Below are positions 1,763-1,961 of a stretch of 4,795 bases of DNA, piece by piece. The stretch's first letter is position 1, and every line of letters starts with the position of its first letter. The stretch lies in IMG/VR virus record IMGVR_UViG_2563366961_000005. One strand, written 5' to 3'. The notes below the pieces were generated by a model, which did no database searches, had not been told where the DNA came from, and saw only the letters and a list, made by a program, of their open reading frames with translations. Source of the stretch: a virus (taxonomy: Duplodnaviria > Heunggongvirae > Uroviricota > Caudoviricetes). The position numbers were made by a program, and so were the translations under genes.

Positions 1763-1930
1763 ATGTTATTCATTAAAGCAAAAGTGAAGAAAGAAAATGG
1801 TGAGGAAGTATTTTCACAGGTCCGGAATGAAGTATTCCCCGGCGAATCACTTAAAGTTTTTGTGGAAGAGTTGAAGAAAAAGCATGGCAGTAACGCCGAT
1901 TTTTATTTCGATGATATTCACTATATCTAA
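1763..1930 (+). CDS. small hypothetical protein, 55 aa (MLFIKAKVKKENGEEVFSQVRNEVFPGESLKVFVEELKKKHGSNADFYFDDIHYI); not in the supplied ORF track
   Basis: Hand translation of 1763-1930. Near-consensus RBS GAGGAGAG about 5 nt upstream of the ATG; followed 10 nt downstream by a hairpin. Confidence 0.5.
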   Translation: MLFIKAKVKKENGEEVFSQVRNEVFPGESLKVFVEELKKKHGSNADFYFDDIHYI

Positions 1931-1940
1931 GGCAAAAGAA

Positions 1941-1961
1941 AGCCCGGTATTGCACCGGGCT
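1941..1961. terminator. Stem-loop, 8-bp stem agcccggt/accgggct with 5-nt loop; possible terminator
   Basis: Perfect 8-bp inverted repeat just after the 55-aa ORF. On the + strand there is no T-tract after it, but an A-tract precedes it, so the T-run follows the hairpin on the - strand. Function is uncertain. Confidence 0.35.

Follow-up and report, generated by a model that had tools for sequence, protein, structure and literature searches.

What are a 55-codon open reading frame (ORF) and the hairpin behind it doing in an otherwise empty gap of a phage-like element? The question concerns the IMG/VR virus record IMGVR_UViG_2563366961_000005, a Caudoviricetes sequence of 4,795 nucleotides (nt) whose whole length we call the window; it is a remnant, bounded by insertion sequence IS1, of an integrative element of the CPZ-55 family. 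A first-pass annotation had singled out positions 1763–1961. The ORF and the hairpin lie where it had put them, and the gap from 1743 to 2054 holds no other credible ORF. Judged by sequence comparison, the ORF is a real protein-coding gene that passes every comparative test. The hairpin, with the U-tract next to it, has the hallmarks of an intrinsic terminator acting on leftward transcripts and belongs to the conserved backbone of the element. Taken jointly, a real cargo gene and an independent leftward backbone terminator that would end an antisense RNA of about 90 nt make up the account we favour, which we hold to be probable, if well short of secure. The features of the slot are these:

1752–1759, plus strand: Shine-Dalgarno sequence GAGGAGAG, with the core AGGAG at 5 nt from the ATG
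1763–1930, plus strand: gene for the 55-amino-acid (aa) protein, ATG at 1763, 55 codons, TAA at 1928–1930
1931–1940, minus strand: U-tract of the predicted leftward terminator, where the minus strand reads TTCTTTTGCC
1941–1961, minus strand: stem-loop of the predicted leftward intrinsic terminator, 1941–1948 pairing with 1954–1961 around a 5-nt loop

The ORF has a strong translation signal. Predicted pairing of GAGGAGAG with the 3' end of 16S rRNA reaches -11.4 kcal/mol, which bears out the near-consensus strength first reported for it. It is not the strongest in the window, as had been claimed, but the third best of 10 gene starts: those at 2414 and 3662 are about equal and slightly stronger (-12.0 and -11.5 kcal/mol), and the remaining seven range from -3.8 to -10.5. 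The description of the ORF as unannotated is likewise right for the supplied gene track and wrong for RefSeq, where the identical ORF already stands as the hypothetical protein WP_001571742.1.

Relatives of the ORF behave as copies of a gene. A filter-free exhaustive search of 1.84 billion representative proteins returned three relatives, and a profile search returned 17 clusters at 90% identity, all of 54–60 aa except one of 42 aa; every cluster with a named source comes from E. coli or Escherichia. In all loci with readable DNA the gene sits in one slot, after the last of the small acidic-protein genes and before the hairpin. Homologues in other loci have their own GGAG, AGGAG or GAGGT 6–10 nt before the ATG, and every copy has a Shine-Dalgarno sequence. 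Across nine DNA copies, frame +1 alone is free of stop codons in all nine, and mean pairwise differences at the first, second and third codon positions are 0.36, 0.32 and 0.62. Nei-Gojobori proportions in 13 divergent pairs put synonymous differences (pS) at 0.72–0.98, which is saturated, versus non-synonymous differences (pN) at 0.27–0.47. The conservation check once proposed for this ORF, ratio of synonymous to non-synonymous change included, therefore comes out in its favour, with the frame open in nine of nine copies and pS above pN. The 42-aa cluster, P0017, stops after ...GKAVK; it may be a truncated allele or a sequence cut at a contig end, and it is the sole possible disrupted copy seen.

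We judge the ORF to be a real gene because its frame is kept, its codon positions differ in the coding manner, its synonymous sites are saturated, each copy has a Shine-Dalgarno sequence and its product folds confidently: AlphaFold2, run with five sequences, predicts a beta-beta-alpha-beta domain at a predicted local distance difference test score of 95.5. Two points weigh against this judgement. The closest informative pair has a ratio of non-synonymous to synonymous rates (dN/dS) of 0.56 with just 18 changes, and Foldseek searches of two fold libraries gave nothing at E <= 0.001 and no significant functional analogue. An untranslated chance ORF would fit the shortness of the frame, the want of a family, domain or PDB match and its absence from most relatives. 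Chance would hardly hold a frame open over saturating synonymous divergence in nine DNA copies and 17 protein clusters, with the translation signal and predicted fold just described, and we find this explanation scarcely credible.

The product resembles no characterised family. PHROGs, NCBIfam and PADLOC gave zero matches; the best Pfam hit was Myosin_N at E = 0.079, below the cut-off, and the best PDB sequence match, at E = 0.0028, was judged not credible. The predicted topology recurs in archaeal ribosomal protein LX and in many uncharacterised phage proteins of 50–70 aa (template modelling (TM) scores 0.64–0.82 with LX and several of the phage proteins), although none of these matches reaches E <= 0.001, identity is 5–21% and no function is known for the phage proteins. 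T7 Gp2 matches the fold weakly (TM 0.42–0.46). With 19 of 55 residues charged and no hydrophobic stretch, the modelled protein is expected to be soluble and cytoplasmic. Its size, fold and genomic setting, which are all that this reading draws on, suggest that it most likely binds and modulates a protein factor of the host or of a helper phage. Whatever its role, the protein adds a member with a confident predicted fold to the large pool of small phage-associated proteins.

One sequence pattern is shared with its neighbours. Positions 1214–1285, inside the gene for a 148-aa protein (953–1399), hold a 36-nt tandem duplication that encodes a repeated TRQYF(E/D)GELDDF, and further 'YF' motifs are found towards the C-terminal ends of three proteins, those of 148, 112 and 55 aa. 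These repeated motifs may be short linear motifs for a common partner.

The gene is optional cargo, and the hairpin is not part of it. The ORF is missing from 11 of the 14 related E. coli loci retrieved with our first search; one of the 11, ampC_0069, shares 94.6% overall identity with the window. At these loci 0–8 nt separate the upstream stop codon from the A-rich run, behind which come the hairpin and the intergenic region as in the window. Absence from 11 of 14 relatives makes the 55-aa gene accessory cargo, and because the hairpin and the intergenic region after it remain in the loci without the ORF, the two features do not form a single unit. The junction without the ORF reads TAATCACAG|GCAAAG and the arrangement in locus L023 reads TAATCACAGaggtaaaaatcATG ... 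TAAgGCAAAG; from these sequences the former looks like a clean deletion of Shine-Dalgarno sequence and ORF from an L023-like arrangement. The gene is rare and dispensable, and it looks like an ancestral gene that was lost several times over, not like a recent acquisition.

The gene also appears to have no transcription signals of its own. A promoter scan found no promoter-like site in 1743–1762, and across the window and the element such sites are no commoner than in shuffled sequence. Lacking its own promoter, and with the hairpin belonging to the backbone, the ORF is promoterless cargo in a polycistronic unit, and it would be translated from its own Shine-Dalgarno sequence on the element's rightward polycistronic mRNA. 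Its position between genes that are adjacent in close relatives (11 of 14 loci), and its dispensability, recall phage morons. Classical morons bring their own promoter and terminator; the 55-aa gene has neither, and the hairpin is backbone. We rejected a classical moron on these grounds, namely that 1743–1762 holds no promoter-like site and that loci lacking the ORF keep the hairpin. We also rejected a type I toxin-antitoxin pair: the peptide is charged and predicted to be soluble, not a small hydrophobic membrane peptide, and the terminator, spacer and -10 element described below persist in the 11 loci without the ORF, so the parts are not co-inherited.

If the hairpin does not serve the ORF, what does it serve? 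It is more stable than shuffled sequence, folding at -15.5 kcal/mol on the plus strand (z = -2.9) and at -18.0 kcal/mol on the minus strand (z = -3.3), and none of 200 shuffled sequences folds as well on either strand. Both in the window and in the 12.5-kb element of E. coli CEA106S it is listed first among the terminator-like sites, with the most G-C pairs, and the terminator scan assigns it to the minus strand in both. All 13 variants of the hairpin fold, at -12 to -22 kcal/mol. When nine versions are aligned, pairing holds in 91.7% of the cells of the 8-pair stem, and at five of its eight pairs both sides are altered; over the whole structure, the observed covariation is reached in none of 500 shuffles, and sliding the partner by one column halves the pairing. 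Locus L017 has an unrelated stem sequence in the same layout of stop codon, eight A and G+C stem.

The polarity of the hairpin points leftward. That its T-tract lies on the minus strand and not the plus strand, as first noted, holds in all 13 variants: within the first 9 nt past the stem, the minus strand has at least seven T in 13 of 13 (counted by eye on the sequences). The odd non-T base shifts position, as expected if base composition, and not the exact sequence, is under constraint. Past the stem on the plus strand the sequence is YAACAAYGCG, with no T-run. The first-pass annotation had offered two roles, an RNA-stability element or a terminator for antisense transcription, and the second is the better option because the hairpin is conserved with its terminator polarity on the minus strand. 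Comparison thus suggests that the hairpin probably ends a short antisense RNA.

Upstream of the hairpin, in the leftward sense, lies the most conserved non-coding stretch of the compared region:

1962–2054, not assigned to a strand: highly conserved intergenic region before the gene for a 91-aa protein, 93 nt

This spacer is 93.5–98.9% identical in 10 of 12 relatives, in which the flanking genes are mostly 69–89% identical. The outliers are L013 (74%) and L015 (53%). In L012 the downstream gene is just 54% identical and the intergenic region 93.5%.

Such conservation could reflect a site read as DNA, with the hairpin incidental: an operator or activator-dependent promoter for the genes to the right, a packaging site, or a recombination 'linker'. 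Homology with many relatives begins abruptly at 1917–1939, as at a mosaic joint; an imperfect 16-bp inverted repeat in the spacer (1982–1997 and 2008–2023) could be an operator; and TTAGCR is enriched in the window, with 15 occurrences observed against 5.7 expected. Even so, we think a DNA site very unlikely. The compensatory changes, G+C-rich stem and variable loop speak for nucleic-acid pairing rather than for a protein-binding site, and no intergenic type has a -10-like hexamer on the plus strand. Nothing suggests that a helper phage shares the site: the spacer has no meaningful match in 50,697 phage records, and a 27-nt core of it has no exact match in IMG/VR or among GTDB species representatives. 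On these results we rejected a cos, pac or late-promoter site borrowed from a helper phage.

The inverted repeat itself reads GCAGAATTAAGCAATG, 10 nt, CAATGTTTAAATCTGC. One A-U pair becomes G-C in L023, a change compatible both with an RNA hairpin, on whichever strand, and with a dimeric operator. The spacer also contains a 15-codon upstream ORF at 1995–2042 (MSVLAMFKSASHYTE), whose TGA overlaps the Shine-Dalgarno sequence of the 91-aa gene and of which L013 keeps a shorter version. As the cause of spacer conservation we considered it unlikely, since it has no Shine-Dalgarno sequence and its frame is broken by a 1-nt insertion in L023; it is probably not coding.

A one-sided promoter signal turns the spacer and the terminator into a candidate transcription unit, with three further features:

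2029–2034, minus strand (read from 2034 to 2029): candidate -10 hexamer TATAAT, a perfect consensus
1933–2025, minus strand, ends approximate: candidate cis-antisense RNA of about 90 nt, inferred
1962–1969, minus strand: 3' half, GCGUUGUU, of a predicted long-range helix, with its partner at 2007–2014, AACAUUGC on the minus strand

The hexamer is retained in the diverged contexts of L013 and L023. Each of the eight intergenic types has exactly one hexamer matching the consensus at five or more of six positions (with A2 and T6), on the minus strand every time (TATAAT, TAGAAT, TACAAT or TAAAAT), and the plus strand has none. In six of the eight types, 96–105 nt separate the -10 element from the end of the U-tract. 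The joint probability of such one-sidedness in shuffled sequence is about 2e-4 over five independent types, a figure to be read loosely because it was computed post hoc, after the pattern had been noticed.

The candidate RNA is predicted to fold ahead of its terminator into an internal hairpin. RNAalifold, given 10 minus-strand sequences, keeps all seven pairs of the long-range helix, in which AACAUUGC joins GCRUUGUU and encloses the variable hairpin. At 1967, where sequences differ between C and T, the minus strand has U.G or U-A and the plus strand C.A or U-A, so the helix is better tolerated on the minus strand. No pair of this helix is altered on both sides, and its support is modest. Rfam 15 holds no matching family; the best hit to this region at E <= 10 is Trp_leader, at 19.9 bits versus a gathering threshold of 41 (E = 1.6), and is noise driven by the terminator.

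We propose the following sequence of events from these comparisons. A leftward transcript would start a few bases downstream of the TATAAT at 2034–2029 and end at the U-tract of the hairpin. It would be fully complementary to the spacer between a left gene block, comprising the HNH endonuclease and small acidic proteins, and a right block with the 91-aa protein, a protein like a small terminase subunit (TerS) and tail proteins. It might act in trans, through interference by convergent transcription, or by giving the long mRNA a double-stranded RNA cleavage site. The comparisons show the conservation of the gene and of the spacer, the covariation of the hairpin, the strand of the U-tract and the one-sided -10 signal; a firing promoter, an RNA made from it and any effect of that RNA are steps we infer.

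Lambda OOP and P22 Sar provide precedents for such an arrangement. Both are short cis-antisense phage RNAs that arise from a promoter inside an operon and end at an intrinsic terminator; OOP overlaps cII at its 3' end, whereas the target of Sar is the ribosome-binding site of ant, which it covers. The candidate RNA resembles them in size (about 70–90 nt), in running opposite to a long phage operon, in its G+C-rich terminator with a U-tail, and in lying at a cistron junction. It differs in that it has no sequence or Rfam relation to either and would cover untranslated spacer only.

Several observations weigh against the antisense RNA. The putative leftward promoter has no -35 match and no canonical extended -10, and a generic promoter scan did not call the TATAAT. 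Because the spacer is nearly invariant, almost no covariation can be tested beyond the terminator. An RNA from 1933 to 2025 would miss both the stop codon of the ORF at 1928–1930 and the Shine-Dalgarno sequence at 2041–2046, and would cover neither a coding sequence nor a ribosome-binding site. Among the translation starts of the element's 17 genes no trans target stood out from background, the best energy lying at about its 5th percentile. Nor does the stem distinguish the strands: its variants amount to five G.U pairs and six mismatches on the plus strand, and three G.U pairs and eight mismatches on the minus strand. Three related versions (L013, L022 and L024) have an internal A.C mismatch in the minus-strand stem, which leaves room for a role of the stem in plus-strand mRNA. 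We dropped the attempt to decide the functional strand from G.U and A.C counts, which are not decisive.

Such a plus-strand role would be that of a processing site or 3' stabiliser in the polycistronic mRNA, setting the relative levels of the left and right blocks with no antisense RNA at all. With all genes of the element coded on the plus strand, their mRNA is certain to form the hairpin; all variants fold well on that strand (-12 to -20 kcal/mol), and in several of them a U.G pair on the plus strand corresponds to the A.C mismatch on the minus strand. A stabiliser nevertheless leaves unexplained the A-rich run of 8–10 nt on the 5' side of the stem, kept in 13 of 13 variants with its odd base shifting, and the one-sided -10 signal, and the wobble count of the stem is not significantly asymmetric. 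The stability role that the first-pass annotation had entertained is therefore rather unlikely.

Terminator polarity on the minus strand would also suit a leftward insulator against long antisense or read-in transcripts from the tail genes or from outside, with no discrete small RNA. The best sigma-70-like match in the window does lie on the minus strand (4463–4434, 10 of 12 positions), and the element has a second minus-strand terminator-like site (L001 6055–6038). Promoter-like sites are no more frequent than chance here, however, and an insulator would need neither the near-invariant 93 nt beside it nor a -10 element at a fixed distance; we consider it quite unlikely.

The candidate antisense RNA accommodates the polarity, the spacer and the -10 element, and it invites a bolder proposal that we offer tentatively and, on balance, doubt: spacer and backward terminator would constitute an undescribed cis-antisense small RNA of about 90 nt, specific to the CPZ-55 family, that gates the left block versus the packaging and tail block, and the 55-aa protein would be a lineage-specific modulator. 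If true, this antisense RNA would be a satellite-type developmental switch over transcription or mRNA integrity, and the target of the 55-aa protein would be a helper-phage or host factor. Being optional, the 55-aa gene is a candidate modulator in conflict between phage and satellite or between phage and host. CPZ-55-type islands are common in E. coli, and a terminator set against all element genes is the strongest regulatory hint found in them so far. Both features are ordinary in kind and leave current understanding unchallenged.

The window itself is a fragment moved by insertion sequences. Its ends, 1–92 and 4700–4791, form an inverted repeat that is perfect over 92 nt and matches without a difference the ends of IS1 copies in thousands of plasmids, so that two inverted IS1 copies bracket the phage-like segment. 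The interior shares 97% identity with a portion of the CEA106S element and 99.95% with a metagenome contig that runs leftward beyond position 92 of the window with no insertion sequence. On the left, IS1 cut a helix-turn-helix (HTH) gene and took away the left regulatory end, for which reason the 55-aa gene may not be expressed in this copy; on the right it removed the distal half of the tape-measure gene (3662–4705), leaving 347 aa versus about 729. Another such case is L013, the plasmid pIncFIB of E. coli PapRG-04-4, which holds a decayed copy of the gene block between IS3-family and IS110-family transposase genes. Insertion sequences evidently carry fragments of the chromosomal element about, as in the window and in L013.

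The complete element occupies a known chromosomal site and has a gene content like that of a satellite or cryptic prophage. In CEA106S, O178:H19 2012C-4431 and O157:H7 PV15-279 it lies between eutB and eutA beside an intZ integrase gene, which is also the site of the cryptic prophage CPZ-55 in K-12. All of its genes run rightward. The two gene sets are:

CPZ-55-family element, order of genes: HTH, HNH endonuclease, three small acidic proteins, the studied slot, 91-aa protein, TerS-like protein, HK97 gp10-like protein, tape-measure protein
CPZ-55 of E. coli K-12, between eutB and eutA: intZ, yffL to yffS

CPZ-55 of K-12 shares the insertion site and integrase type of related loci L001 to L003; K-12 YffO is 53% identical to the protein of the Sf6-like small-terminase homologue that starts at 2414 in the window, and the 91-aa protein has a match in the C-terminal part of YffM. 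K-12 differs in having no block from the HNH gene to the 55-aa gene, no hairpin and no conserved spacer. Because the studied slot is missing there, K-12 transcriptome data are not transferable, and we rejected K-12 CPZ-55 as a transcriptome proxy. A metagenome scan with the 91-aa neighbour found only two copies, identical in protein sequence; a scan of one genome per species found no relatives via that neighbour in other species. We found no paper on the biology of CPZ-55-type islands or on the element family, and none containing these sequences.

Other sites in the window and its relatives may also be regulatory. Just upstream of the Sf6-like small-terminase gene, positions 2341–2402 hold four copies of GGTTAGCG or TTAGCG, and in the relatives each TerS-like allele has its own different short direct repeats, such as GGTAATTCGGGG, five times, in L010 and L013. 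These repeats are candidates for TerS recognition (pac) sites or regulator sites. In L001, a terminator-like CCCGCTCTCTCCGGCGGG followed by ATTTTTTTTG lies on the minus strand at 6038–6055, in a 1.2-kb stretch with no annotated gene (5154–6330) that precedes the HTH gene; this is a hint that the regulatory region of the element gives rise to a further leftward transcript. The K-12 CPZ-55 locus (L019) has four tandem iterons of about 21 nt (GGTGGGTCAAAAGTTGCCGTTA) at roughly 5957–6043, after yffL. Ahead of them stands a plus-strand terminator with a tail, TTTCTTTGCC, similar to the one on the minus strand of the hairpin studied here. These iterons may serve as an origin of replication or as an array of binding sites.

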